DNA of 25,707 bases. It comes from a virus. Lineage: Duplodnaviria; Heunggongvirae; Uroviricota; Caudoviricetes. A program made the position numbers and the translations under genes. Positions within the stretch are counted from its first letter, which is position 1. Each line of letters opens with the position of its first letter. Shown piece after piece: positions 126 to 19,370 of the stretch. A model generated the notes under the pieces. It did no database searches and was not told the origin of the DNA. It saw nothing but the letters and a program-made list of their open reading frames with translations. Where the stretch lies: positions 205,860-231,566 of IMG/VR virus record IMGVR_UViG_3300028797_000096, one strand, 5' to 3'.

Positions 126-2528
126 ATGTTAGTTTCAAGAAATGTTTTACAGTCCTACCCAGATTTACGTGGACAATCTAATAATTATTATTTTGCTTCT
201 AGACAAGATAGAAATACCTACTTTAGTAACCAGCCAATTGCAGAAATGCAATTATGTGCTGTAGGTGGTAATCCAGATTCTACAAATTGGGATGAAGTAG
301 TATGGGAAGTTGAACAATTTAATGGTGAAAACTGGGCAGTTGTTCCTATGGATACTAATTTTGCATTAGTTGTAACTAATGAAGGTATTCAAGCTTTAAC
401 CAATGCTTCTCTAGGCCAATATAAATTAGAAATTTCGCGTGTTGCTATAAAGCAATCTTTATTTCCATCTGGAACTTCTTTAGCTAGTTTAACAAAATCT
501 GATTTCTTCAGTAATTATGAAGACATTTGTTTAGATACTAAAAATGTATTAAATTCTACATTTACTTTAGATAACAGTCTATCTTATCGTACAAATTTAT
601 TAAATGGTGGATTACAATTTACAGTTGAATTAGGATTAGATTGTTTAGGACAAGAATCTTTATCTGAAACAAGCCGTATTGCTCCAACATTAGTGGTTTT
701 TGATGTAGCTGTAATTGGTTTATTTGTAAAAGATCAAAGAGATACAAATAGTACTGAAGATATTTTATTTGGAATAGCATGTTTACCTGCGGTTGTACAA
801 AAGATTGCAACAACCCCTACTCGTGTTGGTAATTCATTAAAATTCTACTTGAATACTACATTAAGTAATATGGCTAATGTTACTAATTTATCTGTATTAA
901 AAAGCTCAGTTAATAGTGTACCCGAAGTATCAAAAGATGATGATTTAATCGATACTTATGATGGTATTTCTGCACCCTATAATCTTTATTTAGTAGATAA
1001 TTATAGTGGAACAAATATTCCTGCTTTGGCTGTTAGAAAAGGTAACCCTTTAAATAGTACTACTCCTATTTCTTGGACATATTTTACACCAACTGATGAT
1101 AATGTATATATTTCTGATACATCTTTAATCGATTTATATGATGAGCTTACAAATCCAACAGGGTTACGTAATTATATGATTGCAGCTTGGGATAATGACT
1201 CAGGAAAATATGTTGCAGCAGATGGATCAGATACCGATCAGCAAATGGCAGGTTTATATAATAATTATTATTTGTCTTATGCCGGTAAAATTAATAATAT
1301 GAATACTCGTTATAATTATTCATATCAATGGAATAATGATGCTGCTGTTAATTATAGAGAAGGTGATACTTTACTAGTAAGTTTTGATAATCCTTCTAAT
1401 CCTACACAATCTCAAACATTTACAATTAAAGTTATTGGCTTAGAAAATGCAGAAATGGGTAAACCAAATGAATTTTATGTAACTCCAACTTCTGGTAATA
1501 CATTTATTGGTACAGATAACCCATACAGAGATGTTAGTTATAGATATATAGAACCAGGAAGAACTTTAGGTACTGGTTTATTATTTAAAGTTAATGCAAT
1601 AAATGCAGATTCAATTAGTTGGAATTTCCCAACGAGTTGGTTAAGTAAACCATTATATGTTGATTATGACCATAGTACTGAAAGTGCAGCTACATGGGAA
1701 AGTTATTGTATTAGTATTGGTTTAGATCCAACTACAGAAAATAAAAATCGCTGTGGTAAATTAACAATTGAAAGAACAGCTATGTTTGTGGGTTGGTGTG
1801 TAGATAGTAATGCAATTAAATTAGCATTAGACTTACGTAATGAAGCAACTGAAACAACGTATGGTACTACAGCTTATGCAACAAATGCAGAAGTAAATAA
1901 TGTATATGGAAATTCTGTAGCTAAAAATACAAAATCAGTAACTCCAGAAACCTTACAAAATAATTACTTACAAACAACTATTCCAGGAACTCCACGCACT
2001 TTAAATGGTAATGAAGGTAATGCAATAAACAATCCTATTGTAGTTAATACATATACCAGATTTGATAAAGTAATTTATGGTAAAGGTACTTCATACTCAG
2101 CAAGCGGTAATTTATCTAATGTATCTTTCTATGGTACTGCATATCGTGCGTTATGGGAAGACTTAGCAGAATATTATAGATCAGATAAAATTTACCCAGC
2201 TGGTACATTGATTTGCATTGGTAGTGGTAACGCTGAAATTACAGAAGCAAAAACAGAATGTAACGGTATTATTTCTACAAAGCCTGGATATGAATTAGGC
2301 GAAAAGAAAGATGCTCGTGATTTACCTGTTGCTTTAATTGGTAAAGTACCAGTATTATTTGCAGATGATTGTGTACCTAGTTTTGGTGAAAAAATATATT
2401 TGTCTAAAACCACTCCAGGTAGAGCATCAACTATACCAAATGGTAAATGCTTAGGTAAAGTAATCGATAAACGTGAAGATTTAAATCAAACACATTCTAT
2501 CTTATGCTCAATTAGAATTGAATTTTAA
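126..2528 (+). CDS. phage tail fibre/baseplate protein with C-terminal Peptidase_G2-like intramolecular chaperone
   Basis: VVTNEGIQALTNA...LEISRVAI resembles tail-fibre N-terminal (DUF3751-like) domains; EATETTYGTTAYATNAEV...VTPETL resembles the T4 gp34/gp12 fibre repeat; C-terminal DLAEYY...GIISTKPG...PVALIGKVPV fits the G2 autoproteolytic chaperone pattern. Confidence 0.75.
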   Translation: MLVSRNVLQSYPDLRGQSNNYYFASRQDRNTYFSNQPIAEMQLCAVGGNPDSTNWDEVVWEVEQFNGENWAVVPMDTNFALVVTNEGIQALTNASLGQYKLEISRVAIKQSLFPSGTSLASLTKSDFFSNYEDICLDTKNVLNSTFTLDNSLSYRTNLLNGGLQFTVELGLDCLGQESLSETSRIAPTLVVFDVAVIGLFVKDQRDTNSTEDILFGIACLPAVVQKIATTPTRVGNSLKFYLNTTLSNMANVTNLSVLKSSVNSVPEVSKDDDLIDTYDGISAPYNLYLVDNYSGTNIPALAVRKGNPLNSTTPISWTYFTPTDDNVYISDTSLIDLYDELTNPTGLRNYMIAAWDNDSGKYVAADGSDTDQQMAGLYNNYYLSYAGKINNMNTRYNYSYQWNNDAAVNYREGDTLLVSFDNPSNPTQSQTFTIKVIGLENAEMGKPNEFYVTPTSGNTFIGTDNPYRDVSYRYIEPGRTLGTGLLFKVNAINADSISWNFPTSWLSKPLYVDYDHSTESAATWESYCISIGLDPTTENKNRCGKLTIERTAMFVGWCVDSNAIKLALDLRNEATETTYGTTAYATNAEVNNVYGNSVAKNTKSVTPETLQNNYLQTTIPGTPRTLNGNEGNAINNPIVVNTYTRFDKVIYGKGTSYSASGNLSNVSFYGTAYRALWEDLAEYYRSDKIYPAGTLICIGSGNAEITEAKTECNGIISTKPGYELGEKKDARDLPVALIGKVPVLFADDCVPSFGEKIYLSKTTPGRASTIPNGKCLGKVIDKREDLNQTHSILCSIRIEF

Positions 2529-4043: not shown

Positions 4044-4052
4044 GGATAGTAC

Positions 4053-5069: not shown

Positions 5070-5076
5070 TAGAACT
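5070..5076 (-). promoter_or_regulatory. AGTTCTA motif
   Basis: TAGAACT on + strand in the 30-nt intergenic gap, about 23 nt upstream of ORF 4637..5047. Confidence 0.55.
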
Positions 5077-5077
5077 A

Positions 5078-6121
5078 TTAATTTTTTGCTAACCATTCAT
5101 AGAACATTTTTATTGCACACCCTTGGTTTTTACTATTTTCATGCATTTTACTTGCCATACAAGGTAATCTACAATAAGAATAATGTTTACATAAATTACA
5201 ATTCAAATTAGAAGTAGCAATAGTGTATTGCCTTTCTGTGCATTGATCTGATAAGCATTCTTTTAAAGTCATACCATATTCTTTCAACATATTTAAGGTA
5301 CCCGAACGGATTAAACAACTAAAAGTAAGCTTATTATTTATAAATGAACAACTATTTGAGCAAACACAATATCTTCCATTTGGATTTTTATAACTTTCTA
5401 TTAATTTGTTTATTTCATCTATATTATTATACCCTTTTTGATAATAATATTTATAAAACTCAAATAAATCCTCATTTGAAGGTGCATATTTTTCCCAATT
5501 TTTATTATAAATATAATATTCTGGATATAACTGATAATTTTTAAGTCTATCTAATACATCTGAATTAAGATATGCAATAATATTTGGCTTAGTCAGTGTA
5601 ATTGATATAACTTGTGGTCTAAAATATCTAATATTTTGCCACCATAGGTCTTCTTGCCTCTGATTATTAAATCTTTCTACTGGATCATAAGAAGTGGCAA
5701 TAACACTATTAGTATCATCTAAAAAATCTTGTACTCTTTTTATGTTTTTAAAGACTAAATTTGAAGAATAACAAAATTCAACTGTATATTTATATGAAAT
5801 AGCCCAAGTTTCTATAGTATGTTGTAAATATGCATAAGCTTCTAGGTATTCATCACTTAAACTATCCATAAAAACTTCGCCTCCCCAAACACGAAAAGTA
5901 AGATGTTTAATATTAGGACGGCTCTGCAAAGCTTCTTTTAATTGTGGTAATAAATATTTAGATAATTCTTTAATTTCTTGAGGAGTTTTAATAGAAGTAT
6001 GCTCCTGAAAACAAAATTTACAGCCCAAATTACATCTGTCAAATAAAATTAGACAAATTTCTAAAAAATCATAGCTTGGATAAAATTGTTTATATAATTT
6101 ATTCATTATCAAATAACTCAA
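5078..6121 (-). CDS. radical SAM protein with C-terminal SPASM-like Cys cluster (rSAM-7)
   Basis: CNLGCKFC, WGGEVF, TSYDPVERF, C-terminal CVCSNSC...C and CNLCKHYSYCRLPC...C. Confidence 0.92.
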   Translation of the reverse strand: MSYLIMNKLYKQFYPSYDFLEICLILFDRCNLGCKFCFQEHTSIKTPQEIKELSKYLLPQLKEALQSRPNIKHLTFRVWGGEVFMDSLSDEYLEAYAYLQHTIETWAISYKYTVEFCYSSNLVFKNIKRVQDFLDDTNSVIATSYDPVERFNNQRQEDLWWQNIRYFRPQVISITLTKPNIIAYLNSDVLDRLKNYQLYPEYYIYNKNWEKYAPSNEDLFEFYKYYYQKGYNNIDEINKLIESYKNPNGRYCVCSNSCSFINNKLTFSCLIRSGTLNMLKEYGMTLKECLSDQCTERQYTIATSNLNCNLCKHYSYCRLPCMASKMHENSKNQGCAIKMFYEWLAKN

Positions 6122-7259
6122 ACAAGGCTTTTAATTGGCATTTTTGAGGTTTTTGCTTAACAATTGATTGAATAAAACATTTTGGTTTACAAAAAGGTTT
6201 ATATTTACAATACATACAACCAAATTTATTATCAAAGTAAGCTTTAACCTCTTGTTTATTGCTTAAACAATACAATCCTTCATTATTCTTTGGTATAAAT
6301 TGTAATATTTCATCATATTTATGCTCACTTATATTACTTAATATACTACTTATACAATTTTTATTGATTATTCTTAATTCATCATCTGTATATACTGCTT
6401 CTGTATTGATTGATTCGGCTGCAAATTGTAATAAAATACACTCATTTCTAGGCTGATTGTCTATATATTTGTGAGATATTCTATTTTTATAAAAAGATAA
6501 AACAGAATGGTTAGGAAAATTTTCTTTTATCTTAGTATAAAAACTTACCAAATCTTCTGTAGTTGGATATAAATCATAATTTTCTATATTATTTAATATA
6601 TAATCTTCAAATGAAATATCATACTTATCATTATTTAATAATATTTCATTTAAAATTTCACTACCTTCTTTATTTTGTAAATAATTTTGAATTCCATACG
6701 TAGTTAATATCATTTCTACCATAATTTTTTTATCTAAAGAAGATTGTAATGTTTTTAAATTATTATTCCATAAAATTAATTGCTCCTTAGTACTAAATCT
6801 ACCCCATAAATCAAAAGATGTAGTAATACAAACATTTATACTTAATTTCATTAAAAATTTAGACAACTCAATAAAATAAACCAAATGCTCTTGATCTAAT
6901 AATAAATTACTTTGAATATTAAATCTAATTTTTATATAACGTTTAGCTACAATATCATATAAATCTTTTGCAACTTGTTTATATAGATCAAAATATTGTT
7001 TATCTAAATAAAATAATTCACCTGCAACAAAGAAAAATGTAATGGTAATATCCGGAGGTAATTCATAAAGGTGTTTATTTAGCCAATTTTTAGTATTTGT
7101 AGTAGTTTTAATAAAATGATCTAACGATACATTATTATTAATCATTCTTTTTGATATAATACAAAATTTACAATTATTATTACAAGAAGTCTTACTCAAT
7201 CCAAATGGATTTATAGTTAATTCTTTTGAATATTTTAAATATTCTAATAAATCTTTCAT
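6099..7259 (-). CDS. radical SAM protein (rSAM-6)
   Basis: CNNNCKFC, AGELFYL, TSFDLWGRF, C-terminal CMYCKYKPFCKPKC...C. Confidence 0.9.
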   Translation of the reverse strand: MKDLLEYLKYSKELTINPFGLSKTSCNNNCKFCIISKRMINNNVSLDHFIKTTTNTKNWLNKHLYELPPDITITFFFVAGELFYLDKQYFDLYKQVAKDLYDIVAKRYIKIRFNIQSNLLLDQEHLVYFIELSKFLMKLSINVCITTSFDLWGRFSTKEQLILWNNNLKTLQSSLDKKIMVEMILTTYGIQNYLQNKEGSEILNEILLNNDKYDISFEDYILNNIENYDLYPTTEDLVSFYTKIKENFPNHSVLSFYKNRISHKYIDNQPRNECILLQFAAESINTEAVYTDDELRIINKNCISSILSNISEHKYDEILQFIPKNNEGLYCLSNKQEVKAYFDNKFGCMYCKYKPFCKPKCFIQSIVKQKPQKCQLKALFELFDNE

Positions 7260-7307
7260 TTTATTAATGTTTCTTATAATCTATATAAGCTATCTTTTTC
7301 ATAAAAC

Positions 7308-8513
7308 TTATTCATTTATTAACTCGTATACTTGTTTTTTCCAACATTCTTTAGGCATATATTTTAAAGTCATTATACCCATACAATACCTATTACATAC
7401 ATTACTATACTTACAAAAATCGCAATGTAATGTTTTATTAAAATATTTATCTACTAACTTTGGTTGATCAATACATATAATACCAGATTTAGGTAAATCT
7501 TCATCAAAATCTCTGTTTATATCAAAGTTAGGCATATTATGGTATTGTGTATAAATACAAGAATCAATAGGTACTGAGCCATCTTCAATACATTCATGAT
7601 GATATGGAGGTTGAGTCCATCCAGGTACATTAAACGTTAAAGCATGACAATTGTTATAATAATATGTTGGTTTAGGAATATTTAAATCTTCAACTTTATA
7701 TGCATTAATTATATCACAATTTGGATGTTTTTCTTTAACTTTTTTATAAAAAGCCAATACTAATTCTTTTGAAGGAATTAATTCTTTAATTTGTTCTTCT
7801 GAATTAGGTACATATTCTTGCATTGTTATAGAAATTTTTGGATTTTTTAATAGCTCATCAAATATTCTACATAATACCATATTTGTTTCATTAATATAAG
7901 TTTCTAAAGCTGGTGTAATCAATAATGTTTCAACATGGATCTTTTCATTTTCATCTAATTGTTCCATTAATAATTTAATAGTATTCATCCAATTAAATAA
8001 GCTTTGTGGAGTATTAAATCTACCCCATAAATCAAAAGAAGTACAAATATTCGGATGTTTACCTAACAAATTACTACATTTATTATAAAAATCTACAAAA
8101 GCTTTTACTCTATCTTCATTAAATAATAAATTAGTAAACAAATTAACAACAGGAGTCTTTTTTAATATAGGTGATAATAAATTCCATCCTGTTTCTAACC
8201 AATTATAATATTCAGTATAATAATCATCTGGCAAATAAAATAATTCCCCACCGATCATTTGAAAATTACATTTGATATCTAACAAATTATTTTTTATAAG
8301 TTGTGGAATTATAGTATCTTTAATCCATTTATATTGAGAATCTTTAGCGATACGTAAATCTTTTATAGACTGAGGTAATCCCATACAGTCTGCTGTAATA
8401 CAAAATTTACATCTATTATTACAAGATGGACGAATTGGATCATAGCTAATTACTTCTAAAATTTTAGACTTTTTAATACATTCTATATAACTCTGCGTAT
8501 TTAAATACTTCAT
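7308..8513 (-). CDS. radical SAM protein (rSAM-5)
   Basis: CNNRCKFC, GGELFYL, TSFDLWGRF, C-terminal CDFCKYSNVCNRYC...C. Confidence 0.92.
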   Translation of the reverse strand: MKYLNTQSYIECIKKSKILEVISYDPIRPSCNNRCKFCITADCMGLPQSIKDLRIAKDSQYKWIKDTIIPQLIKNNLLDIKCNFQMIGGELFYLPDDYYTEYYNWLETGWNLLSPILKKTPVVNLFTNLLFNEDRVKAFVDFYNKCSNLLGKHPNICTSFDLWGRFNTPQSLFNWMNTIKLLMEQLDENEKIHVETLLITPALETYINETNMVLCRIFDELLKNPKISITMQEYVPNSEEQIKELIPSKELVLAFYKKVKEKHPNCDIINAYKVEDLNIPKPTYYYNNCHALTFNVPGWTQPPYHHECIEDGSVPIDSCIYTQYHNMPNFDINRDFDEDLPKSGIICIDQPKLVDKYFNKTLHCDFCKYSNVCNRYCMGIMTLKYMPKECWKKQVYELINE

Positions 8514-9481
8514 CTTAATATCTCTTCATATATTTTAGTTAAGCCTGGGCAACCTGTCTCATCAAACTGTAATTGACAACAATCGCCATTACATATTTTG
8601 TAGAACTTACAGAATTTACAAGGATTTGGAATACTTTTTTCTATTTTAATTAAAGTATCTTCTAAATTTTTATTATATATATTATCTTTGGTTTTTATAA
8701 TCTTATCTGAACAATTTGGGCATGCACCTAATGATCCATCTGTATTTAAAGTACGAACATTCTGCATACATTCTCTTCTTCTACACCCAAAAAAGTCTTG
8801 CTTATAATGTATTAACTCTTCAAACAAAGGAATTTCTAATTGGAATTCTTTATTTACTATAAAAACTTCATATAACCAATCATCTATTTCTCGATTTGTT
8901 GGTTTAACCTTAACCTCTGCTGCTCTGCCAGTTTCTGTAATACGTTCAAAATTTACTATATGAATACCTAAAGCTTTAAAATAAGTTAATAATTCTTTTG
9001 GCTTATGTAATACAGTCTGATTATTAACAGTAACTATCACTTGAATATTAAAACCTAATTTTATCAATTTTCTTATATTTATTTCCCATAAATTTAATTG
9101 GTCTTTTGTTTTAAATCTATAATCATCTACATCCCAGCTTGTTTTAATAAACTTATTTGTAAACTTATTAAACAAATTTATATGATCTTCAGTTAAATCA
9201 TACATTAAATTAGTAGTAGCACTCCATATTACATTAGGAAAAGTATCTATTAACTCAATATAAGGTTTTGTATCTTTTATTAAATAAAAAGGTTCACCTC
9301 CATGAAATACACATTCTAAACTATCATCTTTAGCTAAACCTTTAAGCATATCACTAATTACTTCTTTAATTCTATTTATATCTAAAAAAGATATTTGCTG
9401 TAAAGTACATGGTTTATAACAACCTTTACAAGCTAAATTACAACTATCAGTTAAGCATAAATAAAGTTTTTTATTTGTCAT
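8510..9481 (-). CDS. radical SAM/SPASM protein (rSAM-4)
   Basis: CNLACKGC, FHGGEP, C....C...DGSLGACPNC, CKFCKFYKICNGDC...C. Confidence 0.93.
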   Translation of the reverse strand: MTNKKLYLCLTDSCNLACKGCYKPCTLQQISFLDINRIKEVISDMLKGLAKDDSLECVFHGGEPFYLIKDTKPYIELIDTFPNVIWSATTNLMYDLTEDHINLFNKFTNKFIKTSWDVDDYRFKTKDQLNLWEINIRKLIKLGFNIQVIVTVNNQTVLHKPKELLTYFKALGIHIVNFERITETGRAAEVKVKPTNREIDDWLYEVFIVNKEFQLEIPLFEELIHYKQDFFGCRRRECMQNVRTLNTDGSLGACPNCSDKIIKTKDNIYNKNLEDTLIKIEKSIPNPCKFCKFYKICNGDCCQLQFDETGCPGLTKIYEEILR

Positions 9482-10385
9482 TATAACTTTCCCACCACTC
9501 TAGTAATTCTTTACAACCATCACATTTTAAATTAGTAATATGCTCTGTCCAACAATTACCATAATATTTACAAAACCCACATTTCTTTCTATATAAATGT
9601 AATTCGTTGTTACAATCTTCTATATATTCTTTAATATTATCATACCATTTAAAATACTCTAAATTATTTTCATTATAATAAATTGCACCTAACTTTCCAT
9701 CTGGTCCAATTCTAATGCATTGATCATTTGTTGCAATAGGATAATTCCTTTTAATACACTCATTTAATCCACAGATATGTCCAAGCTGATATTCATATTT
9801 ATTCTGTAAATATACTTCTGTTAAATTCTTCAAAGTATTTTGATATTGTTCTTGAGAAATATTAAATATATCACCAGTATTAATACTAGGATAATACTTA
9901 ATAAAACATACATAATCAATATTTAAATTTTTATAATCATCTAATATTTCTTTTGGATCTGTATTAATAATACTAGGTGTTATCATACTCAATACAGATA
10001 ACTTCCTTCCTAATATGTTATTTTTTAATTTATTCTTAATATCTTCATAATCTGGTCTTTCTTTATTTAAAGAAGTTGATAATATAGTATCTTCAAATAT
10101 TTTTAATTTTTTTATGTCATATAAATTACTTGTAACAAAATTTGGTGCATTATAACTATTTATTATATTATTTAATTCAATTAAATATTCTTCATCTAAT
10201 AAAGTAATTTCACCTCCATATAAATTAAACTTATGAATTTTAAAATATTTTGATATTTCAACTAATCTTTGTTTTAGTATATTCAAATCTAATACTTGTG
10301 AATGATGATTGTTATGTAAATAACAAAATTCACAATTTTGATTACATTGATAACTAGGAAAAATGGACACTATTATTTCACGCAT
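9471..10385 (-). CDS. radical SAM protein (rSAM-3)
   Basis: CNQNCEFC, YGGEI, C.RIGPDG, CGFCKYYGNC...C..C. Confidence 0.92.
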   Translation of the reverse strand: MREIIVSIFPSYQCNQNCEFCYLHNNHHSQVLDLNILKQRLVEISKYFKIHKFNLYGGEITLLDEEYLIELNNIINSYNAPNFVTSNLYDIKKLKIFEDTILSTSLNKERPDYEDIKNKLKNNILGRKLSVLSMITPSIINTDPKEILDDYKNLNIDYVCFIKYYPSINTGDIFNISQEQYQNTLKNLTEVYLQNKYEYQLGHICGLNECIKRNYPIATNDQCIRIGPDGKLGAIYYNENNLEYFKWYDNIKEYIEDCNNELHLYRKKCGFCKYYGNCWTEHITNLKCDGCKELLEWWESYNDK

Positions 10386-11199
10386 TAGCTTTTACTTTTT
10401 CATAGAATTTTGGATAAAAGGAACATCTAGTATGTAACTCACAAGGCCTACAAACTTTTGCATATTTACAATCAAAGCATTTTATTAATATATTTCTACA
10501 CCTTTCACCGATTATACAACCTGGTCTAACAGTTCCATCAGGTAACAAAGTTATACTATTACATTTAAAATCCCAGTGTAAAATTTGTTCTTCTATTAAA
10601 TTTTTAATTTTAATTCTTTTATACCGCCAAAGTGTATAAATATTACATAACCATTCATCTATCTTATTTTGGAAATCATTAGTTAAAGTATTATCAACTA
10701 ATGGTTCAAATAAAATTTCTTCTATACCAACTTCTTCTAAATCTTTTATTACTTTAGTAAACATATCAATATCAAAATGTAATAAATCCTGATCTAATGT
10801 AATTAATACCAAAGGTTTATTATTTAAACTTTTTATATTATTTAGCCATTGTAAATAATGCTGTAAATTAAACCTATTCGGATTCCAACTTGTTGCTATT
10901 GGAATATCTCTTTTGTTTAAATCTTCTATTATTTCTGGTTCAGTAATTAAATTTGTACAAATCGAATCAATTATATTTGTATCCATTATTTCTAAATATC
11001 TTTTTGGATATAAAGTAGGCTCACCTCCATGCAAAATAAAAGAGGCTTTAGGATATTTCTTTTTCAATTCTTTTAGTTTTGTAATGAATACTTCTTTATT
11101 GTAGGTATCTGTATATTTATGTACAAAACAATGCGGACAATGTAAATTACATTGCCAAGTAGGAACTACATAAACTTGCTTTTGTTTAGATAAGGTCAT
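10378..11199 (-). CDS. radical SAM protein (rSAM-2)
   Basis: CNLHCPHC, HGGEP, TSWNPNRF, C..ITLLPDG...GC, CFDCKYAKVCRPC....C. Confidence 0.92.
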   Translation of the reverse strand: MTLSKQKQVYVVPTWQCNLHCPHCFVHKYTDTYNKEVFITKLKELKKKYPKASFILHGGEPTLYPKRYLEIMDTNIIDSICTNLITEPEIIEDLNKRDIPIATSWNPNRFNLQHYLQWLNNIKSLNNKPLVLITLDQDLLHFDIDMFTKVIKDLEEVGIEEILFEPLVDNTLTNDFQNKIDEWLCNIYTLWRYKRIKIKNLIEEQILHWDFKCNSITLLPDGTVRPGCIIGERCRNILIKCFDCKYAKVCRPCELHTRCSFYPKFYEKVKANA

Positions 11200-12151
11200 G
11201 TTTTTTTAATTCTATATAATGTTCTTTCATCCATTTACAATGTTCTTCTTTGATTGGTTCAGTACTTTGTCTATTTAAAGAACATCCATTACAAATATTA
11301 TACATTGGACAAGCATAGCATTTACTAAACAGAACGCCTTTTTCTACTTTATATTTACCTTGTGAACTAATTTCTTCTTCACAATTACCTTCAATTAAAC
11401 AATTGTTTATATCTACATATACTACTTTTAATTGCTTACAATTTTTATATGATGCACTAAATGGACAAATTTTTCTTTCAATATTTAATAAGTTACCTTC
11501 ATGATCTGCTAATCCTTTATTATATAACTCCAAATATATTTCTAATAACCTATATCTTGGAAAATACTCTGTTGCTTTTCCAACTGGTAATTGTGAATTT
11601 AATTTAACCCATACATCTAATTCTTTTGCTAATTCTACCGTTTTTATTGCATATTTTACATTATCATTATTAATAACACTAATAAAATCTAATTTTTTCT
11701 GATATCTATTATAAAATTTCCAAAATAAATCTAAAAAACGTTCTTCTGTATATACTTTGTCATCTTTTCTATCATCACCATATTGAAAAGAAGTATCTAC
11801 TCCAACTTTTGGATTATTAAATAACCAATCCCATTCTTCTGGATTATTATACCATAATACTAAATTACTTGTAATACTAACCCAATAATCTACTTGTGTT
11901 TTATCTAATGTATCAAATAAATCATCCCAATAAGATTTAGGATTCATTAAAGGTTCACCACCTGTAATAATAATATTAGTAGGTTTATAATCTAAAATAT
12001 ATTGTTTTAAAGGCTCTGGAAGTTTGTTATGAAGAGGTATATTTAATAATTTTGCACTACAAAAAGCACAATTAAAATTACATGCATTAGTAGGTTTAAT
12101 TATTAAAGTTTTAGAAGTACTTAATAAATTATCCTGCATTATCTTCACCAT
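11186..12151 (-). CDS. radical SAM/SPASM protein (rSAM-1)
   Basis: IKPTNACNFNCAFC, TGGEPL, CYACPMYNICNGC...C; the true start may be the second Met near 12139. Confidence 0.93.
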   Translation of the reverse strand: MVKIMQDNLLSTSKTLIIKPTNACNFNCAFCSAKLLNIPLHNKLPEPLKQYILDYKPTNIIITGGEPLMNPKSYWDDLFDTLDKTQVDYWVSITSNLVLWYNNPEEWDWLFNNPKVGVDTSFQYGDDRKDDKVYTEERFLDLFWKFYNRYQKKLDFISVINNDNVKYAIKTVELAKELDVWVKLNSQLPVGKATEYFPRYRLLEIYLELYNKGLADHEGNLLNIERKICPFSASYKNCKQLKVVYVDINNCLIEGNCEEEISSQGKYKVEKGVLFSKCYACPMYNICNGCSLNRQSTEPIKEEHCKWMKEHYIELKKHDLI

Positions 12152-12869
12152 CTTCTTGATTATTTAGAACTAAACCAAAGAAAGATATAGAAGGTAAATT
12201 TAAAAACTCTGTATATAAAATAGAATTTTTATCTATTTGTTCTAAAATAAATGTATAATTAGCAGGTTTAATTTTATCAGTATAATATAACCTAATCGCA
12301 TCAAAAACAATAGGATATTGTTGTAATAATAAATGTAATACTTCAAAATATAATGGTTTTTCAACAATTGTTTCTAAATCAGAAGTTATTGTAACATCAC
12401 TAAATTTTGTTCTAGTAGGATTTTCTAAAGCATAATCAAGTAAAAGGTTTAAAGAAACAATAAAGCGTAACATTTCATTTACCAGATCTTTATTATTCTC
12501 TTTAAATTTAATTGTTTCTTCAGGTGTTAATATATTAATAATATTATCAATCGGACCATCTGCTAAAATACTTAAAATGGTTTCATTTAATTCTTTTATT
12601 GATAAATCGTATAAACAGGCATCTAAATATTTTAAAATCCACTCTTCTTTTACTTCATATGTACATTTAGAAAAATCACAAGGAAAAGGTAAATCTATAT
12701 TGCGAAGATAAATTAAACTACATTCTACTTTATTTGATTCTAAATCTGGATCATCATATTTAATACTTGCAATATCTATACAATACTCACTTATATCTAC
12801 TATAGGATTACCTTCATTTGAAATATCTAATACTTCATCAGGAACAGGTAATGTAATTAATTGCTTCAT
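12129..12869 (-). CDS. hypothetical acidic protein, putative accessory factor of the radical SAM cluster
   Basis: Strong AAGGAG RBS; lies between the CHSN-repeat gene and rSAM-1 and overlaps the latter; no recognisable motif. Confidence 0.75.
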   Translation of the reverse strand: MKQLITLPVPDEVLDISNEGNPIVDISEYCIDIASIKYDDPDLESNKVECSLIYLRNIDLPFPCDFSKCTYEVKEEWILKYLDACLYDLSIKELNETILSILADGPIDNIINILTPEETIKFKENNKDLVNEMLRFIVSLNLLLDYALENPTRTKFSDVTITSDLETIVEKPLYFEVLHLLLQQYPIVFDAIRLYYTDKIKPANYTFILEQIDKNSILYTEFLNLPSISFFGLVLNNQEDGEDNAG

Positions 12870-12892
12870 TTAAATCTCCTTTTAATATTATT

Positions 12893-13666
12893 CTAACGCC
12901 TTGAACGATTTGTGTGGCAATTACTATGGCAATTGCTATGACAGTTAGAATGGCACCAATATCTAGCAAAGAATACAATATTACTTGCACTAGAACTATC
13001 ACTTGCATTGCCACTCCACCAGGCTGCTTGGTTATTTTGTGTTTGCCAAGAATCTTTAAATTTATTTACCTGTGTTTGTAAAGTAGTAAGATAATTAACC
13101 ATATTATTAACAGAAATTATAGTGCTCGCTGTTAATTCTCTTGTCATAGTCCAACCACTGCCTCTATCAGGAATAGTTTGATATCCAGTATTATCAGTAT
13201 TTGAATTACTAACAGCCGTAGGTTTAGTATAATTACCACCTAATGTAATATTTTTTTTAAAATATGTCCAAGTACCATTTTTTGGATTAATGCCATATGA
13301 ACTAACAACTGAAGCAGGAGAAGCCGTTGAACCGGGTGCATTAGCACCTACATTAAAATAATATACTTTTCTACATCTACCCATTTGTACAAAAACTCGC
13401 TTCATTAAATCCCAAACCTTAGAAGCTTTAATTAACTGATTTGTACTAGCAGGTTCACCTTCTGTATCAATTATTGCACAAATATCGGTATATAAACTAT
13501 CTCTTGTAGACAAATAAGGCGTTAATTGACTATCTGGAGAATTGTCACTCGACCAAGCAGAAGTCGGTAACATATTATAAATAGTTGATTTTAATGCCTC
13601 TTTAAATCCATCAACAGTATCATTACTGGGAGCTTTTTTAAGCTTAATCTTATCATTAGTAGCCAT
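12893..13666 (-). CDS. 257-aa protein with C-terminal (CHSN)x3-CHTN-RSRR tail; putative radical SAM modification substrate, possibly a virion protein
   Basis: First gene of the unit that holds 7 rSAM genes; Cys every 4th residue at the C-terminus; Ser/Thr/Asn-rich body. Confidence 0.7.
   Translation of the reverse strand: MATNDKIKLKKAPSNDTVDGFKEALKSTIYNMLPTSAWSSDNSPDSQLTPYLSTRDSLYTDICAIIDTEGEPASTNQLIKASKVWDLMKRVFVQMGRCRKVYYFNVGANAPGSTASPASVVSSYGINPKNGTWTYFKKNITLGGNYTKPTAVSNSNTDNTGYQTIPDRGSGWTMTRELTASTIISVNNMVNYLTTLQTQVNKFKDSWQTQNNQAAWWSGNASDSSSASNIVFFARYWCHSNCHSNCHSNCHTNRSRR
12896..12955 (-). repeat. coding 12-nt tandem repeat encoding CHSNCHSNCHSNCHTN plus RSRR
   Basis: TGC CAT TCT AAC / TGT CAT AGC AAT / TGC CAT AGT AAT / TGC CAC ACA AAT. 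Confidence 0.95.
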
Positions 13667-13705
13667 AATATAAAACCTAAGTAAAAAATAAAACTTTATA
13701 CTATA

Positions 13706-13729
13706 TAGAACTGCATTTTTATAGTTCTA
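13706..13729. promoter_or_regulatory. back-to-back AGTTCTA motifs (TAGAACT-N10-AGTTCTA) in the divergent intergenic region
   Basis: TAGAACT at 13706-13712 points to the rSAM unit; AGTTCTA at 13723-13729 points to the spanin genes. Confidence 0.6.
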
Positions 13730-13747
13730 AAAAGAAAAGGAGTATAA

Positions 13748-14059
13748 ATGATTTCCTTAAAAGTTAAAGCTTTTCTTATCGGTGGAGCTATAATAATCAT
13801 CGGTACTTTATTTTCTTTATGGCGTATTACAAGTATAAAGCTTACTAATACTCAACGCCAATTAACTGAGGTTACTTGTCAATTAGATACCGTAACCAAA
13901 GAAAACGCTAATTTAATTGAATATAATAAGCGTAGAGATAGCCAAATTAAAGAATTAGAGAAAGCCTATCAAGAGCAATTAAATACAATACCGGCTGATT
14001 CTTGTGGTGATATGAAGCCCTCAAAAGAAATGTTAGATTTCTTTAAACAAGGGAGATAA
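13748..14059 (+). CDS. putative inner-membrane spanin (Rz-like)
   Basis: One N-terminal TM helix, a long coiled coil and a C-terminal C.D..P motif; immediately upstream of a lipoprotein gene; AAGGAG RBS. Confidence 0.7.
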   Translation: MISLKVKAFLIGGAIIIIGTLFSLWRITSIKLTNTQRQLTEVTCQLDTVTKENANLIEYNKRRDSQIKELEKAYQEQLNTIPADSCGDMKPSKEMLDFFKQGR

Positions 14060-14061
14060 CT

Positions 14062-14298
14062 ATGAAAAGATTAGTTTTATTATTGATATTGGGATTATTT
14101 TGTTTAATGCTTGTTGGATGTTCTTGGTTTAATTCATCTAAGCCTATCCAGACAAATCAATACTATCAGACAGATTACAACTACTTCTGTTATGAAGAAG
14201 GTAAAACTTGGTCTCAAATTGTAGTATGTTTAACTGCAGAGGGTAAAGCAGAACGTACCCAAAATAAAATTACCAATGATTTATTAAATCAAAATTAA
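14062..14298 (+). CDS. putative outer-membrane lipoprotein spanin (Rz1-like)
   Basis: MKR, hydrophobic stretch, lipobox LVGC; small mature domain with two further Cys. Confidence 0.7.
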   Translation: MKRLVLLLILGLFCLMLVGCSWFNSSKPIQTNQYYQTDYNYFCYEEGKTWSQIVVCLTAEGKAERTQNKITNDLLNQN

Positions 14299-14580
14299 TT
14301 ATTTTTTATTGTATTTTTTTGATAAATGTTCAACACGATTTGACAAACAAAAATATAGTACTAAACTAGCAAAGTTTGCCAACATATTTAATAATAAAAG
14401 AACTAAAATACCAATAAATAAATCATTTAAACTTGAAAAATAAGCTAAATTTCTATGTAAATCAGCAAAGTCTTTAATTGCTAATCCCATAACAACACAA
14501 CTTATTAATGGAAATATAAATACACTTTTAATTATTGTTTTTTTATGGAACAATCTTTCAAACCAATTCAATTTAGCCAT
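14299..14580 (-). CDS. small membrane protein (2 predicted TM)
   Basis: Two hydrophobic stretches, basic termini. Confidence 0.6.
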   Translation of the reverse strand: MAKLNWFERLFHKKTIIKSVFIFPLISCVVMGLAIKDFADLHRNLAYFSSLNDLFIGILVLLLLNMLANFASLVLYFCLSNRVEHLSKKYNKK

Positions 14581-14583
14581 TTT

Positions 14584-14820
14584 TTACTCTTCATCTTTAT
14601 CTGAAATAGGAAATGTTATATATTTTAATACCTTAAGAGGATGTAGAGTAAAATAATGCTCTGCTATTACTGCACTTACAGCAACACTTCCACATACAAA
14701 CCAACAAGGTAGACCTAAAATTCGAAGCAAGATACCCACAAAGACTGCAATTAATGTTGCAACACCCATATTAAATGCCGTAGTTATCTGCTTATTTGTT
14801 GCTCGTCTACACATTGTCAA
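14584..14820 (-). CDS. small membrane protein (2 predicted TM)
   Basis: Hydrophobic segments; GAGG RBS just upstream. Confidence 0.6.
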   Translation of the reverse strand: MTMCRRATNKQITTAFNMGVATLIAVFVGILLRILGLPCWFVCGSVAVSAVIAEHYFTLHPLKVLKYITFPISDKDEE

Positions 14821-14825
14821 ACCTC

Positions 14826-15191
14826 TTAGTTTTTCTTGGTTCTTTTATTTACAGGGTCTGCTTCATAATCTTCTTGAGTTGGCTTAACACCGACTGTATC
14901 TTCAATCTTTTTTACAAATATTGTAGGTATAGCGGATAATAAACGCTCTGCCGATAATGCAGATAAAGCAACTATTATATATGTTAAATCTTCTGCAACA
15001 CCAAAATGTGCACATGCAAAACTAGCTAATATACCAATAAAGAAACTCAAAATAAGATTAACAATAAAATCAAGTTTCTTCGGAAATATACCATCATGCA
15101 CATATAATAGTATAGTTTTAACCGCACCACTCAAGAAAGAAATTAGAGATGCTACAAGTATAGTTATAAGATCTTGTCCTCCGATCATCAT
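14826..15191 (-). CDS. putative holin (3 TM, charged C-terminal tail)
   Basis: Three hydrophobic helices in the pattern SFLSGAVK...LSFFIGIL...IIVALSALS; charged tail; near the spanins. Confidence 0.6.
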   Translation of the reverse strand: MMIGGQDLITILVASLISFLSGAVKTILLYVHDGIFPKKLDFIVNLILSFFIGILASFACAHFGVAEDLTYIIVALSALSAERLLSAIPTIFVKKIEDTVGVKPTQEDYEADPVNKRTKKN

Positions 15192-15263
15192 GTCTAAATA
15201 TTCTCTTTATTACTTTTTTCTCTCACTTTAGGAAAACAAATTAGATATACTTGCCTATATAAA

Positions 15264-15270
15264 TAGAACT
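15264..15270 (-). promoter_or_regulatory. AGTTCTA motif
   Basis: TAGAACT on + strand, directly after the hairpin and upstream of the holin-like gene. Confidence 0.55.
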
Positions 15271-15295
15271 GGGATATTTTCAATAAAATATCCCA
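15270..15295 (-). terminator. hairpin, probable terminator of the metallophosphoesterase gene
   Basis: TGGGATATTTT-caat-AAAATATCCCA perfect 11-bp stem; weak U-tract. Confidence 0.55.
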
Positions 15296-15320
15296 AATTC
15301 ACTTTATTTTATATATAGTT

Positions 15321-16274
15321 TTAATACTGTAATTCAGCGTCTTTTTTCTTTTGCATTATTTTTAATTTATAAGATTGTAATTCGCCTATTTTTGCTATAG
15401 GATTTACAATAATTTTAACATCTGAATTTAACTTATATTTACCATCTTCACTAAATGGAGTTAATTCAACTGATCCAAAACCTTGTAATGCTTGATGAGA
15501 ATAGAATCTTTCTGCAAAATTAATGTTATGATCATCAACTGTTCTACCTTTTTGATAAGAAGGAGTTTGAATAGATTGACGATTTTTCATTCTTACTTCA
15601 CCTGTTTGATCAATATACATAATTGGATCTGAATAATCGGCTACAGCATGATGTTTATGACCAATCCAAATTAAATCGGCTAATGTACCTTTCATAATAC
15701 GATTAAAATCAATCATACCTTTAGTTACTGGGCTATTACCACCTGCGCCATGATTTTGGAATATATCATAATGTATAATAGATTTATTTCTATTATCTAC
15801 AAAATTAAATCTTAAAAAATTAGCATAATTACCATATTGTATTTGATGTTTACTTCCAGTATTTAATAATTGTGTAACAAGTTGTAATACATCTACTCCC
15901 GAATACTTTAAAATAGATTCTTCGTGATTACCACGACCTATAAACAAAATGCTATCTTTATAAGGTCTTAAAAATTCAACTACATCATTAATTTTAACAT
16001 TTAACTGATTATCTGTCTTTTCCATAAGATGATTTACTGCTCTTTTACCGTCTCTTAATAAAATAGCATCGAATAAATCACCACCAATAAGGATATATCT
16101 ACCATCCTTTAAACAAAAATCTAAATGCTTTTTTAATGTCGTTTTATCACAATCTGGGGAATCAAAGTGAATATCTGAAAATAGAGCTAATTTTAAAGTT
16201 GTACCTGCTTTTAAAGGTACACTATATTGCAAAGCTTTCATTGTAAAATTTCTCCCTATAATATATCTATTCAT
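15321..16274 (-). CDS. calcineurin-like metallophosphoesterase
   Basis: SDIH, GGDLFD, GRGNHE, HG and GHKH motifs; likely true start at 16241 (MKAL) behind a GGGAG RBS. Confidence 0.88.
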   Translation of the reverse strand: MNRYIIGRNFTMKALQYSVPLKAGTTLKLALFSDIHFDSPDCDKTTLKKHLDFCLKDGRYILIGGDLFDAILLRDGKRAVNHLMEKTDNQLNVKINDVVEFLRPYKDSILFIGRGNHEESILKYSGVDVLQLVTQLLNTGSKHQIQYGNYANFLRFNFVDNRNKSIIHYDIFQNHGAGGNSPVTKGMIDFNRIMKGTLADLIWIGHKHHAVADYSDPIMYIDQTGEVRMKNRQSIQTPSYQKGRTVDDHNINFAERFYSHQALQGFGSVELTPFSEDGKYKLNSDVKIIVNPIAKIGELQSYKLKIMQKKKDAELQY

Positions 16275-16319
16275 ACCAGATTAGTACATAATAGAGATAT
16301 ATTCTTCCTTTACATATAA

Positions 16320-16326
16320 TAGAACT
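16320..16326 (-). promoter_or_regulatory. AGTTCTA motif
   Basis: TAGAACT on + strand between the terminator and the phosphoesterase gene. Confidence 0.55.
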
Positions 16327-16339
16327 TCTCTAAAATTTT

Positions 16340-16365
16340 AAAAACCCCTAGTTTACTTCTAGGGG
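16340..16365 (-). terminator. rho-independent terminator after the glycosyltransferase gene
   Basis: CCCCTAG-7 nt loop-CTAGGGG followed by a T5 run on the - strand. Confidence 0.75.
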
Positions 16366-16375
16366 CTTTACGAGT

Positions 16376-17398
16376 TTATTTCTTCTTTTTCTTATCTTCT
16401 TCTTGACATTCTGTTTCTAATTTTTCTATAAATTCCTTAAATCCTATTCGAGGTATAATCCTAAACATTTTATTACCTAAATAGCAATTTCTCATTACTT
16501 CATTATAGCAGTCTGACAAGATTTCATCAGAAATTTTATCTTTAATTTCACGATAAATCTCACGATAATATTTGCGACACCATTCCCAATTTTGTTCTTC
16601 ATATCTAGGATCAGAACGCTGCGTTTCTAAGAAATATTCATATAAATTACATAACATAACTACTTTTTGTTGCATTACTTGACCATTAAATGGAACAACT
16701 TTTTCTGCTTCTTTTAAAGCATTTATTTGATTTGCAGTAAAACCAACAAAAGAACCATTATATGAATAATTTGCGTTATCTTTTCTAGTAATTGAATCCT
16801 CTTTAAAACACCAATAATATAAAATATCAGGAATTTCTATAATCTGTTCATTTTCATTTTGATATAATTTACACAATGTATTCCAAAAGCCATCTTCATT
16901 ACTACGACTATTCTCTGGTGGAAAATGTACTTTATATTTATTAATAAAATCTCTACGATATAATTTACCAAACATCCAAGGATCCATACCACCATGTTCA
17001 AGATATGCTTGTTGTTGATCTTCTAAAAAATGCCCAAATACTCCTACAATACGAGGATCTTTTAACATATTTAAACGTGCAATTTTTAAAGCAAATCTAC
17101 CAGAAAATGTATCATCAGCATCAATAAATGTTATAATAGGATTATTAGTTTCATTAACACCTTTTTGACGAGCTTCACCTGGACCAGCATTTTCTTCTAA
17201 AGTAATTTCTTTAATTTTCATATATGGAGAAAACATATCTATAAATTCTTTATAACCAATTCCATCTGCGTCATTTACTATTGTAACTTCAAGATCTTCT
17301 ACAATTTCTTGTTCTGCAATAGAAGAAAGCGTACGAATAATTGTATTCTGTGCTTTATAAGCTGGAATAATTACATCAATTTTTGGTAGATCACTCAT
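16376..17398 (-). CDS. glycosyltransferase family 2 (GT-A fold)
   Basis: DVIIPAYK, IVND, NAGPGEARQKG, FIDADD (DxD), WMFGKLYRR, NED. Confidence 0.92.
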   Translation of the reverse strand: MSDLPKIDVIIPAYKAQNTIIRTLSSIAEQEIVEDLEVTIVNDADGIGYKEFIDMFSPYMKIKEITLEENAGPGEARQKGVNETNNPIITFIDADDTFSGRFALKIARLNMLKDPRIVGVFGHFLEDQQQAYLEHGGMDPWMFGKLYRRDFINKYKVHFPPENSRSNEDGFWNTLCKLYQNENEQIIEIPDILYYWCFKEDSITRKDNANYSYNGSFVGFTANQINALKEAEKVVPFNGQVMQQKVVMLCNLYEYFLETQRSDPRYEEQNWEWCRKYYREIYREIKDKISDEILSDCYNEVMRNCYLGNKMFRIIPRIGFKEFIEKLETECQEEDKKKKK

Positions 17399-17421
17399 AA
17401 AAACCCCTTTTATCTATTATG

Positions 17422-17428
17422 TAGAACT
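17422..17428 (-). promoter_or_regulatory. AGTTCTA motif
   Basis: TAGAACT on + strand 3 nt from the terminator U-tract and about 24 nt upstream of the GT2 start. Confidence 0.55.
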
Positions 17429-17431
17429 AAT

Positions 17432-17459
17432 AAAAAAGGGATAATTTTTTAATTATCCC
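17432..17459 (-). terminator. rho-independent terminator ending the adhesin/fibre gene run
   Basis: GGGATAATT-tttt-AATTATCCC followed by T6 on the - strand. Confidence 0.75.
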
Positions 17460-17465
17460 AAAATT

Positions 17466-17849
17466 TTATTGATTATTTTTCCATTCTTCAAAAGGTATTA
17501 ATTCTAACTTTAATATAGCATTTGTATCTTCTAATTTTTCTAAATCTAAATAATACTGCTCATATTCTTCAAATATAGGATCATCTTCATATAAGAATTT
17601 CTGATTTAAAATAAATTCAAATATTTCTTTCTTTTTCTTTTCAATTTGAATTTCTTCTTCAGTACGAATATGTGTATAAAAATATCCATCTTTACCATCT
17701 ATAAAATATTTATAATCTGAATTAGTACACCAAACAGCCCATTTTGGATAAATATTATCATCTCTTTCATCATATTTCATAATTAGATGTAAAAAATATT
17801 CATCTGTATAATTTGTTTCTACTACTTCTTGTTTTTTCTTTCTTACCAT
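17466..17849 (-). CDS. hypothetical protein, possible tail fibre assembly chaperone
   Basis: Last gene after the fibre-like genes; Y..WAVWC and YEQYY.DL...PFEEW resemble phage tail assembly chaperones; AAGGA RBS. Confidence 0.45.
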   Translation of the reverse strand: MVRKKKQEVVETNYTDEYFLHLIMKYDERDDNIYPKWAVWCTNSDYKYFIDGKDGYFYTHIRTEEEIQIEKKKKEIFEFILNQKFLYEDDPIFEEYEQYYLDLEKLEDTNAILKLELIPFEEWKNNQ

Positions 17850-17870
17850 TTTTATTATCCTTTTTAATTT

Positions 17871-19370
17871 TTACATTTTTGAAAATGTAAACGTAATTGT
17901 TTTTGTTCCAGTAAAGTCACTTTGTGTAAAGTAATCTTCTAAATGATGACTATAGTGTTCACGCTGTGAATCAACTTCATATTTAATCTGTTCTGGCCAT
18001 GTAAATGGTATTGCTACAGGTAAAGTAGCTGTTTTTCCATTAAGCGTAATTGTTAAATTCCACAAACCAAATAATCTACCATCAACTCCTCCCGAATAGC
18101 AAGTATCAAATTGACTACACCAAGGATTTTTACTAGCCTTTGGTTTTTCTAAACCAAAAGTAAAATCACGAAGAGTGGTTTGACCTAAATATGACCCAGA
18201 ATTAACTGTACCTATAGAATCACTCTCAAAGCTACGCATAACACCATATAATTCATATGTACTACTCCAATTACTATCAACGCCAAACGTTACATTTACA
18301 GAATATGTAGTAGGTACAATAAAATCATACATCGCATATAAAGTAACATCTGAATTAATTATATAAGTATCTAAATTAACAATATCTGCAGCTAAACCTG
18401 TTAATGAATACCCTGTTAGTTCTTGCGCATAAAAAGTATACATTGTGTGATCATTATTATCTGGTCTATACCCCAGTTTAAAGATTTGATTTTCTACGAT
18501 ATTATTTATTGTAGAACTAGTAGTAAGTAATTCTCTTAATGTAATCCCTTTTTGAGCAGAAACTTTGATTGTTTTCCAATTACTTCCTGTTGAAGTACCA
18601 TTTGAACATTTAATAGTTAAAGTTACTGTTACAGGTAATTCATTACTATCATATTCAGGTGCTCTATATACAATAATAGATGGATTAACTGGATCAGCTG
18701 CTTCTACATCTATATATAAATTTCTAAATACAATCTCTTCATTATCTGGAGAAATTACACAGATTGTTGTATTTTCTGATTCCTGTGTATTTTTATACAA
18801 AGTAATACTTATATCATGTTCATTTGTATTATATTTTAAATCTGAAATATTTTGTGTAATATAATATAGTTGACCATTACTATGATCATCTTTATTTGTA
18901 GAGTATGCCTTATATGTATAATTACTATTCTCTCCTAAATCAAAATATCTATATATTTTATTATCATAAATATAATCTTTTTTATTATTATTTATATTCC
19001 CTTTGGTCATATTATTATTCATATGCGTACTAAAAGAGGCTATTCCTGTACCTTGTTTAACCAAAATACAATCGGGCTCTGATTCATATTGTGAAGGATC
19101 TGTTCCTTCGTCCAGTCTACAAACAGGTGAATATCTTATACTTAAGATATTTTTTGCATATAAATAATCATTTACATGCCCATAATAACCTGTACATATT
19201 TTATATCTATAGGGATAACCAGGATAAGTTGTATCTGATATAGAATCTAAATAGAATAATGCTTTATAATCATAATCATAATCATAACGTTTATAATAAT
19301 ACCCATCCCATTCCATATATAATGTTAAATCTGTTTCATTTATAGCTGCATCAGAAATTTTTCTATACAT
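17871..19370 (-). CDS. Tyr/Thr-rich putative virion/adhesin protein
   Basis: Beta-rich composition; INSDVTLYAMY resembles the end of a Listeria-Bacteroides (Flg_new) repeat; tightly packed with the LRR genes. Confidence 0.5.
   Translation of the reverse strand: MYRKISDAAINETDLTLYMEWDGYYYKRYDYDYDYKALFYLDSISDTTYPGYPYRYKICTGYYGHVNDYLYAKNILSIRYSPVCRLDEGTDPSQYESEPDCILVKQGTGIASFSTHMNNNMTKGNINNNKKDYIYDNKIYRYFDLGENSNYTYKAYSTNKDDHSNGQLYYITQNISDLKYNTNEHDISITLYKNTQESENTTICVISPDNEEIVFRNLYIDVEAADPVNPSIIVYRAPEYDSNELPVTVTLTIKCSNGTSTGSNWKTIKVSAQKGITLRELLTTSSTINNIVENQIFKLGYRPDNNDHTMYTFYAQELTGYSLTGLAADIVNLDTYIINSDVTLYAMYDFIVPTTYSVNVTFGVDSNWSSTYELYGVMRSFESDSIGTVNSGSYLGQTTLRDFTFGLEKPKASKNPWCSQFDTCYSGGVDGRLFGLWNLTITLNGKTATLPVAIPFTWPEQIKYEVDSQREHYSHHLEDYFTQSDFTGTKTITFTFSKM

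Follow-up and report, generated by a model that had tools for sequence, protein, structure and literature searches.

A Cys-His-tailed jumbo-phage protein and the radical SAM gene cassette that probably modifies it

In a 25,707-nucleotide stretch of phage DNA (hereafter the window), a 257-residue protein ending in a short repeat of alternating cysteine and histidine leads a cassette of radical SAM genes. As far as sequence can tell, this protein (hereafter the carrier) belongs to a widespread family, apparently undescribed, of which it is a divergent representative of Asn type with seven enzymes. It has all of the family's defining features: the tail, the shared body (through a remote link), the accessory gene and enzymes of the R323, R321, R347 and R304 classes. 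We consider it quite probable that the carrier tail is the substrate of the cassette radical SAM enzymes, and likely that the carrier is a virion protein. The explanation towards which we lean overall is that the carrier is made late, that the cassette enzymes modify its tail, probably by crosslinking, and that it is then built into the particle as a virion protein. The original prediction, a structural protein with a crosslinked or metal-binding C-terminal tip, is partly supported by our results.

The window is the terminal part of a 231,566-base virus record (29% GC). Genes for the sheath and tube of the tail, the wedge of the baseplate and the protease of the head, together with the major head genes, identify the source as a jumbo myovirus, and the Rz-like spanin and holin matches that adjoin the carrier gene suggest a diderm host. 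The carrier gene (12893..13666, minus strand) encodes a body predicted to fold as an alpha/beta domain, followed by a C-terminal tail. Translation of the open reading frame bears out that YW precedes the repeat and that RSRR and a stop codon follow it, and the codons agree with those first listed; the repeat had been described as four CHSN units, which is true of three, the fourth being CHTN. This core, CHSN-CHSN-CHSN-CHTN (residues 238-253; 12908..12955, minus strand), is the likely modification site, and the terminal RSRR with its stop codon (12893..12907, minus strand) represents an RxRR motif present in 24/24 aligned sequences. The body is indeed rich in serine (11.9%), threonine (11.1%) and asparagine (9.4%), but not, as had been claimed, in glycine, which at 5.5% ranks below alanine and lysine. 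A six-frame search found no CHxxCH anywhere else in the 232-kb genome, the carrier tail being the sole instance. The N-terminus is not hydrophobic (maximum KD15 0.23), which argues against export.

The four 12-bp units of the repeat differ pairwise at 2-5 of their 12 bases, and every difference is synonymous except the Ser-to-Thr change. Over the 12 codons starting at YWCH, two relatives differ from the window at 5 and 3 nucleotides and at none of the amino acids. Since the changes between units are nearly all synonymous and those against the two relatives entirely so, the repeat is maintained at the protein level, as originally proposed from its varied codons; fresh DNA slippage as its origin is ruled out by the same observations. 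A frame artefact is likewise ruled out, the open reading frame being conserved over its full length in homologues. In an alignment of 24 sequences, mean identity of the 23 homologues to the window's carrier is 0.92 at 15 tail positions and 0.33 at 233 body positions, and the tails hold two C[HY] units in 4 sequences, three in 14 and four in 6, so that units are gained and lost over longer times. What is constrained in the repeat is thus its protein sequence, a unit now and then being added or dropped.

The carrier gene leads a closely packed minus-strand run in which an accessory gene is followed by seven genes with a CxxxCxxC motif, located at residues 14-31 in all seven products; we name the enzyme classes by protein length. 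The accessory protein (246 aa; 12129..12869) is a conserved partner of the carrier, with a homologue in all 58 viral contigs that extend at least 7 kb downstream. It has no Pfam, NCBIfam or PHROG match, the ESM Atlas gave nothing usable for it, and its profile found nothing below E 0.24 among PDB sequences. The Radical_SAM profile recognizes five of the seven enzymes at E ≤ 1.2e-4, R386 weakly and R401 not at all. In order, the run comprises R321 (11186..12151; PF04055 E 2e-12, supported by the class profile; 45/58 contigs), a core class; R273 (10378..11199; PF04055 E 5.5e-9), which is mostly lineage-specific (1/58); R304 (9471..10385; PF04055 E 2.2e-6; 34/58); the radical SAM/SPASM enzyme R323 (8510..9481; phrog_1802 E 3.8e-31; 47/58), also a core class; R401 (7308..8513), a divergent protein with no family match that is likely a radical SAM enzyme, having the motif at residue 31 and 19 cysteines; R386 (6099..7259; R347 profile E 2.4e-27, PF04055 E 0.028), a divergent radical SAM paralogue of the R347 class; and R347 itself (5078..6121; phrog_1802 E 1.7e-25; 51/58). 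Two relatives, L251 and L252, preserve this gene order. Profile searches of the run gave no peptidase, transporter or RRE match. A second accessory class, a 2OG oxygenase and a cupin are common among family members but absent from the window's cassette; B12-type methylases likewise occur in the cassettes of other members. The run ends in a 136-aa orphan (window 4637-5047, minus strand) with no family match. Elsewhere in its own genome, the profiles of the window's cassette found only one further match: a stand-alone R304-like gene (E 9e-37; genome 25857-26816, minus strand; L255:8857-9816), which lies far from the cassette and has lost CxxxCxxC.

The link between tail and enzymes was assessed in both directions. 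In the scanned part of IMG/VR, at least 122 stretches matched a degenerate pattern of DNA coding for three CHxx units, RxRR and a stop codon (about 280 are estimated), and from these we obtained a flanked set of 80 loci on 77 contigs. All 77 contigs have a CxxxCxxC open reading frame near the tail; in 69 an enzyme is confirmed by a class profile, and the remaining 8 have divergent CxxxCxxC frames only. When divergent frames were sampled, nine of ten gave weak matches, to Radical_SAM or Fer4_12 or, in one case, to something unrelated. Tail homologues occurring apart from radical SAM genes, which would have counted against the original prediction, were therefore essentially not encountered in this flanked viral set. 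In the reverse direction, the R323 profile picked 336 loci, and of the best 80 among them 70 have a carrier (69 recognized by the pattern, plus L231, whose tail is a variant) and 9 are truncated at a contig end, L232 being left aside; this test is partly circular, the R323 profile having been built from tail-selected loci and the best 80 of 336 having been used. Enzyme-picked loci also include 16 with a tail ending in CHGS[I/L], which is beyond the reach of the DNA pattern. The 95 carriers on the 77 contigs range from 124 to 434 aa (median 186), none being shorter than 100 aa and 14 reaching at least 240 aa. A long body is therefore the rule of the family, and the carrier, described earlier as unusually long, is so in comparison with RiPP leaders but not among its relatives. 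Bodies are very divergent across the family, with few residues in common, and some loci encode tandem paralogous carriers that differ in body but end in the same tail. A distinct group combines twin short carriers (124-140 aa) with strongly diverged enzymes in which the motif reads CxxxCxGC (L006, L030, L037, L038, L058, L063, L067, L078, L083 and L084).

The family extends to cultured phages and to bacteria. Through the R323 enzyme we found the cassette in phages RSL2, Atu_ph07, pPa_SNUABM_DT01 and Phosso; tblastn of the window's carrier against cultured phages gave no real match. The carrier has no Pfam, NCBIfam or PHROG match either, and its ESM Atlas matches all score below 0.9. In GTDB the pattern matched 43 stretches, of which 39 have a real carrier (L131-L169), 27 belong to Bdellovibrionota and two lie on contigs longer than 2 Mb. 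The other four are chance matches: three have no carrier frame and one is a 32-aa frame in DNA of 69% GC. At two of four scanned bacterial loci the cassette adjoins a gene for Peptidase_S74, which is the terminal domain of many Bdellovibrio MAT fibres (PMC10769870). One bacterial contig, L146, has a cut carrier and no cassette gene in the 5.2 kb downstream. Bacterial carriers show no signal-peptide-like start, only 1/71 sequences in the wider-family alignment (A3) exceeding the threshold, which in the case of Bdellovibrionota is awkward for a role at the cell surface.

One tie between the carrier and the virion runs through its body. The AlphaFold2 model of the carrier is a compact alpha/beta structure (mean pLDDT 73, pTM 0.72) in which a strand at residues 231-240 runs into the low-confidence tail, and helices and strands follow one another in the same order in the model predicted for a typical 190-aa family member (pLDDT 84). 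With tails included, the carrier profile (A2) and the wider-family profile (A3) align colinearly with a probability of 99.2%. After removal of the tails the match is weak: E is 0.006 for the main group and 0.0015 for Bdellovibrionota, against about 0.08 for reversed controls; the tail-free comparison with the Atu pair (E 0.35) is not significant. The typical-member model matches a 296-aa protein of Atu_ph07 (E 2e-7), 296 aa being the length of gp170, as well as A0A6J5PFP0 (E 9e-11). The latter is also the top match, and the best viral one, of the model of the window's carrier itself, at a non-significant E of 0.13. We take the window's carrier to be a remote homologue of gp170. The carrier model matched no PDB fold at E up to 0.001; the best VIA Z values are 4.2 for the carrier model (rmsd 4.1, 121 aligned) and 3.8 for the family model (rmsd 4.7, 132 aligned). 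These values give no ground for calling the carrier fold new or different. Three BFVD proteins of one uncultured myovirus (A0A8S5USJ7, A0A8S5USJ8 and A0A8S5USV2; 504-660 aa) have the carrier fold in common, suggesting that much longer forms may exist.

In the published proteomics of Atu_ph07 virions, gp170 (31.89 kDa) was detected with 8 unique peptides and 35% coverage (PMC6102473 Table S5). It was spread over gel bands 1-9 and peaked in band 1, alongside proteins of 127 and 139 kDa. Among the 39 proteins of 25-40 kDa with at least 2 peptides in that table, gp170 and gp321 are the only ones to peak above band 4, and just 2/39 peak in band 1 (PMC6102473). The radical SAM and accessory neighbours of gp170 (gp165, gp168, gp169 and gp171) are absent from the same virion list (PMC6102473 Table S5). 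The sample was PEG-purified, and RecA-like and reductase proteins appear on the list too; moreover, the loading buffer as printed contains no reductant (PMC6102473), so gp170 in band 1 could represent disulfide aggregates. In RSL2, gp68 is annotated only as hypothetical, whereas gp57 and gp65 are annotated as virion proteins. The window encodes an 800-aa tail-fibre-like protein (126..2528, plus strand) with PHROG tail fibre matches, the C-terminal domain of which is found no more than 8 kb from the tail in 54/77 contigs, and the Atu_ph07 homologue of this protein, gp176, is found in virions (PMC6102473 Table S5).

Late expression of the carrier is suggested by a short upstream motif. This motif, AGTTCTA (13706..13712, minus strand), is found 46 nt upstream of the carrier gene and precedes the carrier in L251 and L252 too; in this phage group it is a putative late-promoter element. 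A second AGTTCTA(T) copy, at 13723-13729 on the plus strand, places two copies back to back in the gap between the carrier and spanin genes. Across the genome, AGTTCTA(T) occurs in 33 of 114 upstream regions, where 1.2 would be expected. Genes bearing it include those for the sheath, two tubes, the wedge, the head protease, two fibre-like proteins, two holins and the spanin. However, a helicase, HNH nucleases, Hsp20 and a methyltransferase have it as well; among the genes lacking it (81, of which 44 were scanned) are DNA polymerase, DnaB and dUTPase. The major head gene has the motif at -243. A sigma-70 scan of upstream regions yielded no more sites than shuffled sequences. AGTTCTA is likely a late-promoter element, and together with the presence of gp170 in the Atu_ph07 proteomics (PMC6102473 Table S5) it lends indirect support to the earlier claim that the carrier is structural.

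If this reading is correct, the carrier would be made late in infection and bound by the cassette enzymes, with the accessory protein perhaps taking over from an RRE the task of presenting the substrate. By abstracting hydrogen atoms from the tail, the enzymes would then form crosslinks, most plausibly between the His ring and the C-beta of the Ser or Asn two residues on, and/or thioethers of Cys, which are the other obvious option for the chemistry of such a tail. The modified carrier would join the particle in the region of the baseplate or fibres, where it might stiffen a fibre- or baseplate-associated structure or link its subunits. The His-to-C-beta crosslink specifically is a tentative choice, and we think it unlikely to be the right one among the possible products, but the tail is compatible with it. 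In 166 distinct tails, whose Cys, His and Arg are fixed by the search pattern, the residue directly after His is variable, but S, N or A occupies the next position in 162, 163 and 166 tails at the three repeats. Triceptides follow an aromatic-X2-X3 rule, and links from His to C-beta are known among them (PMC11499958); the tails agree with this rule, and the carrier core (H-x-S/N/A) has that motif. The triceptide systems (HaaB, HtkB, YhhB, ChlB; PMC11499958) share with ours a His-X2-X3 unit with a variable X2 and a restricted X3, and SPASM-type enzymes. The R323 profile matches ChlB, and the best NCBIfam match of R323 is the cyclophane maturase AmcB. However, here a precursor of 124-434 aa is predicted to be folded, 4-7 enzymes are present, neither a peptidase nor a transporter is found, and the crosslink is putative; scores to the known cyclophane-synthase families lie far under the cut-offs (AmcB 43.6/425, YhhB 29/445 and GrrM 23.9/310 bits).

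Other maturation systems are similar in part. The CXXX-repeat system (TIGR04114/TIGR04115; tSAM_targ_Cxxx_rpt) also has Cys at every fourth residue beside radical SAM genes, and a weak Atlas feature match (0.81) is a lead only. The carrier differs in having a fixed His and S/N and a tail ending in RxRR; it does not match the target model, and the maturase model scores 19.9 against a cut-off of 350 bits. The radical SAM/SPASM maturases of the anSME and QhpD type act on motifs containing Cys, in proteins that fold afterwards. Positions 12-317 of the R323 profile align to anSME 4K37 (E 1e-10) across both the radical SAM and the SPASM regions, and R323 has invariant C-terminal cysteines, a trait of radical SAM/SPASM auxiliary clusters; R401 has the CxxxCxxC motif only. 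Unlike in the anSME and QhpD systems, there is no sulfatase or dehydrogenase target here and several divergent enzymes accompany one small protein; the score to the anSME model is 36 against 349 bits. None of the cassette enzymes comes near the cut-off of a named maturase family. The system works like a radical SAM protein-maturation pathway and belongs to none of the families tested.

The terminal arginines may have enzymes of their own. Among enzyme-picked loci with at least 9 kb downstream, those with RxRR have R347 in 35/35 and R304 in 33/35; where RxRR is missing, both are absent in 7/7, R323, R321 and the accessory gene are retained, and a gene resembling a B12-type radical SAM methylase is present instead. 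When five records of each kind were searched whole, R347 was found in 5/5 with RxRR and in none without, the R304 profile giving in the latter only cross-matches to frames of R321 length. The loci without RxRR belong to a clade whose tail ends in CHGS[I/L] (L208, L214, L215, L217, L224, L229, L234 and nine more). This covariation, by which R347 and R304 might act on, or depend on, RxRR, is a lead only, the RxRR-less records being 22-41% complete and probably from one clade. The most far-reaching version of our reading is that, in hundreds of large phages and in predatory bacteria beside phage-like fibre genes, a radical SAM cassette crosslinks the tail of a particle protein into an SDS-resistant polymer, using separate enzymes for the Cys-His repeats and the terminal arginines. 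In this full form we find it doubtful.

Of the rival readings, the one that fares best also holds the tail to be modified, but makes the carrier a packaged or intracellular effector (in DNA binding, superinfection block or counter-defence) akin to HxsA. The HXS system (HxsA, the radical SAM enzymes HxsB and HxsC, and the partner HxsD) is the closest working analogue, although the carrier does not belong to it. HxsA, as described in PMC13128918, is a protein on the 214-residue scale that is matured by two radical SAM enzymes and a small partner, gains 8 Da on an SHRSS motif, has basic His-x-Ser repeats, binds DNA and forms part of an antiphage system. The likeness lies in a full-size protein with His-x-Ser-type repeats (H-S-N in the window's carrier, H-x-S in most family members) beside several radical SAM genes, a small non-enzyme partner and basic residues near the repeats. 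The precedent of a DNA-binding protein matured by radical SAM enzymes (PMC13128918), the H-x-S/N repeats with their RxRR end, the presence of the cassette in bacterial chromosomes as well (27/43 GTDB matches in Bdellovibrionota) and carriers without a hydrophobic N-terminus would all suit an effector. Against it stand the peak of gp170 at the top of the gel (PMC6102473) and the fibre-type genes that are the usual neighbours in phages (54/77 contigs) and recur, as Peptidase_S74, at 2/4 bacterial loci. The carrier differs from HxsA, too, in its repeat period of four, invariant Cys and C-terminal position of the repeat, in having neither a signal peptide nor a peptidoglycan-binding domain, and in being encoded by phages of lytic type and having a relative in virions. 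The HxsA family (TIGR03979) has no match in the genome, none of 71 family members gave an Hxs match, and the maturases stay below their cut-offs (best HxsC 21.7 against 267.9 bits; HxsB absent among the matches listed). We consider such an effector rather unlikely.

Cys and His in alternation lend themselves naturally to metal binding. The tail might then be an unmodified metal-binding (Zn, Cu, Fe-S) or disulfide-forming element, the enzymes acting instead on the fibre protein, whose genes often adjoin the cassette, or on a small molecule. The migration of gp170 in band 1 with no stated reductant (PMC6102473) would fit disulfides. Yet the enzymes track the carrier (70/71 untruncated loci among the best 80 of 336) more closely than they track the fibre domain (54/77), the position two after His is restricted to S/N/A, and loss of RxRR accompanies loss of two enzyme classes. 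This strict coupling to radical SAM/SPASM enzymes of the peptide-modifying type leads us to favour covalent modification and to regard an unmodified tail as improbable. Still less do we expect the carrier to be a true RiPP precursor, with the body as an oversized leader and the modified tail cleaved to release a small peptide at lysis. A C-terminal repeat core beside several radical SAM/SPASM enzymes, the 2OG oxygenases, cupin and B12-type methylase of other members, and tandem paralogues with different bodies and an identical tail do recall such systems. But carriers of 124-434 aa (0/95 below 100 aa) and a cassette with no peptidase or transporter match depart from the general RiPP pattern (a protease encoded elsewhere or by the host might still act), a folded body is predicted in which the strand leading to the tail is modelled with confidence, and peptides of the gp170 body were found in particles (PMC6102473). 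Finally, a tail serving as a docking tag, in the manner of a C-terminal 'follower', and bringing in enzymes that modify the body or a bound partner would suit its near invariance and the position of CxxxCxxC at residues 14-31, which leaves no room for an N-terminal RRE, but is very improbable given that such divergent bodies make a poor shared substrate and that Cys and His are typical sites of radical SAM reactions.

Modification of a late virion protein by the cassette would give phage radical SAM clusters something they have lacked, a named candidate substrate, tied to the virion through existing proteomics. Phage radical SAM enzymes are mentioned without a substrate in the passages covered of several reports (PMC11898562, PMC8066314, PMC5468394, PMC7029224, PMC5332604), and clusters in large phages have been described as cassettes of the host-recognition region (PMC7029224) or as Fe-S genes (PMC5332604). 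The cluster of phiRP31 (PMC5468394 Table S2B) is not among the R323 matches in cultured phages. In the literature covered, which mostly excluded subscription papers (the original RSL2 proteomics included), we found no description of the tail or the cassette, and the word 'radical' is absent from a jumbo-phage survey (PMC7824862). Were our explanation true, RiPP-type radical chemistry would extend to virus assembly, at least four new enzyme classes would act on a 16-residue tag, and a maturation step common to the fibres of phages and of predatory bacteria would be suggested. The window itself adds an Asn-type, seven-enzyme variant, the late-promoter link and a covariation of tail and enzymes that assigns likely roles.

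Several further features of this genome were recorded along the way. Two frames of 51 and 143 aa that follow an Mtd_N gene (window 4053-4661, plus strand) have no family match. Over ~1.36 kb the two ends of the record are repeats of one another, but the two copies of a 318/333-aa gene differ in their C-termini. Two BspA-type leucine-rich-repeat proteins have their genes on the window's minus strand (19375-24700), and long arrays of paralogous adhesin-like genes occupy positions 1-18000 and 132000-150000 of the genome; together they suggest a variable host-recognition repertoire.
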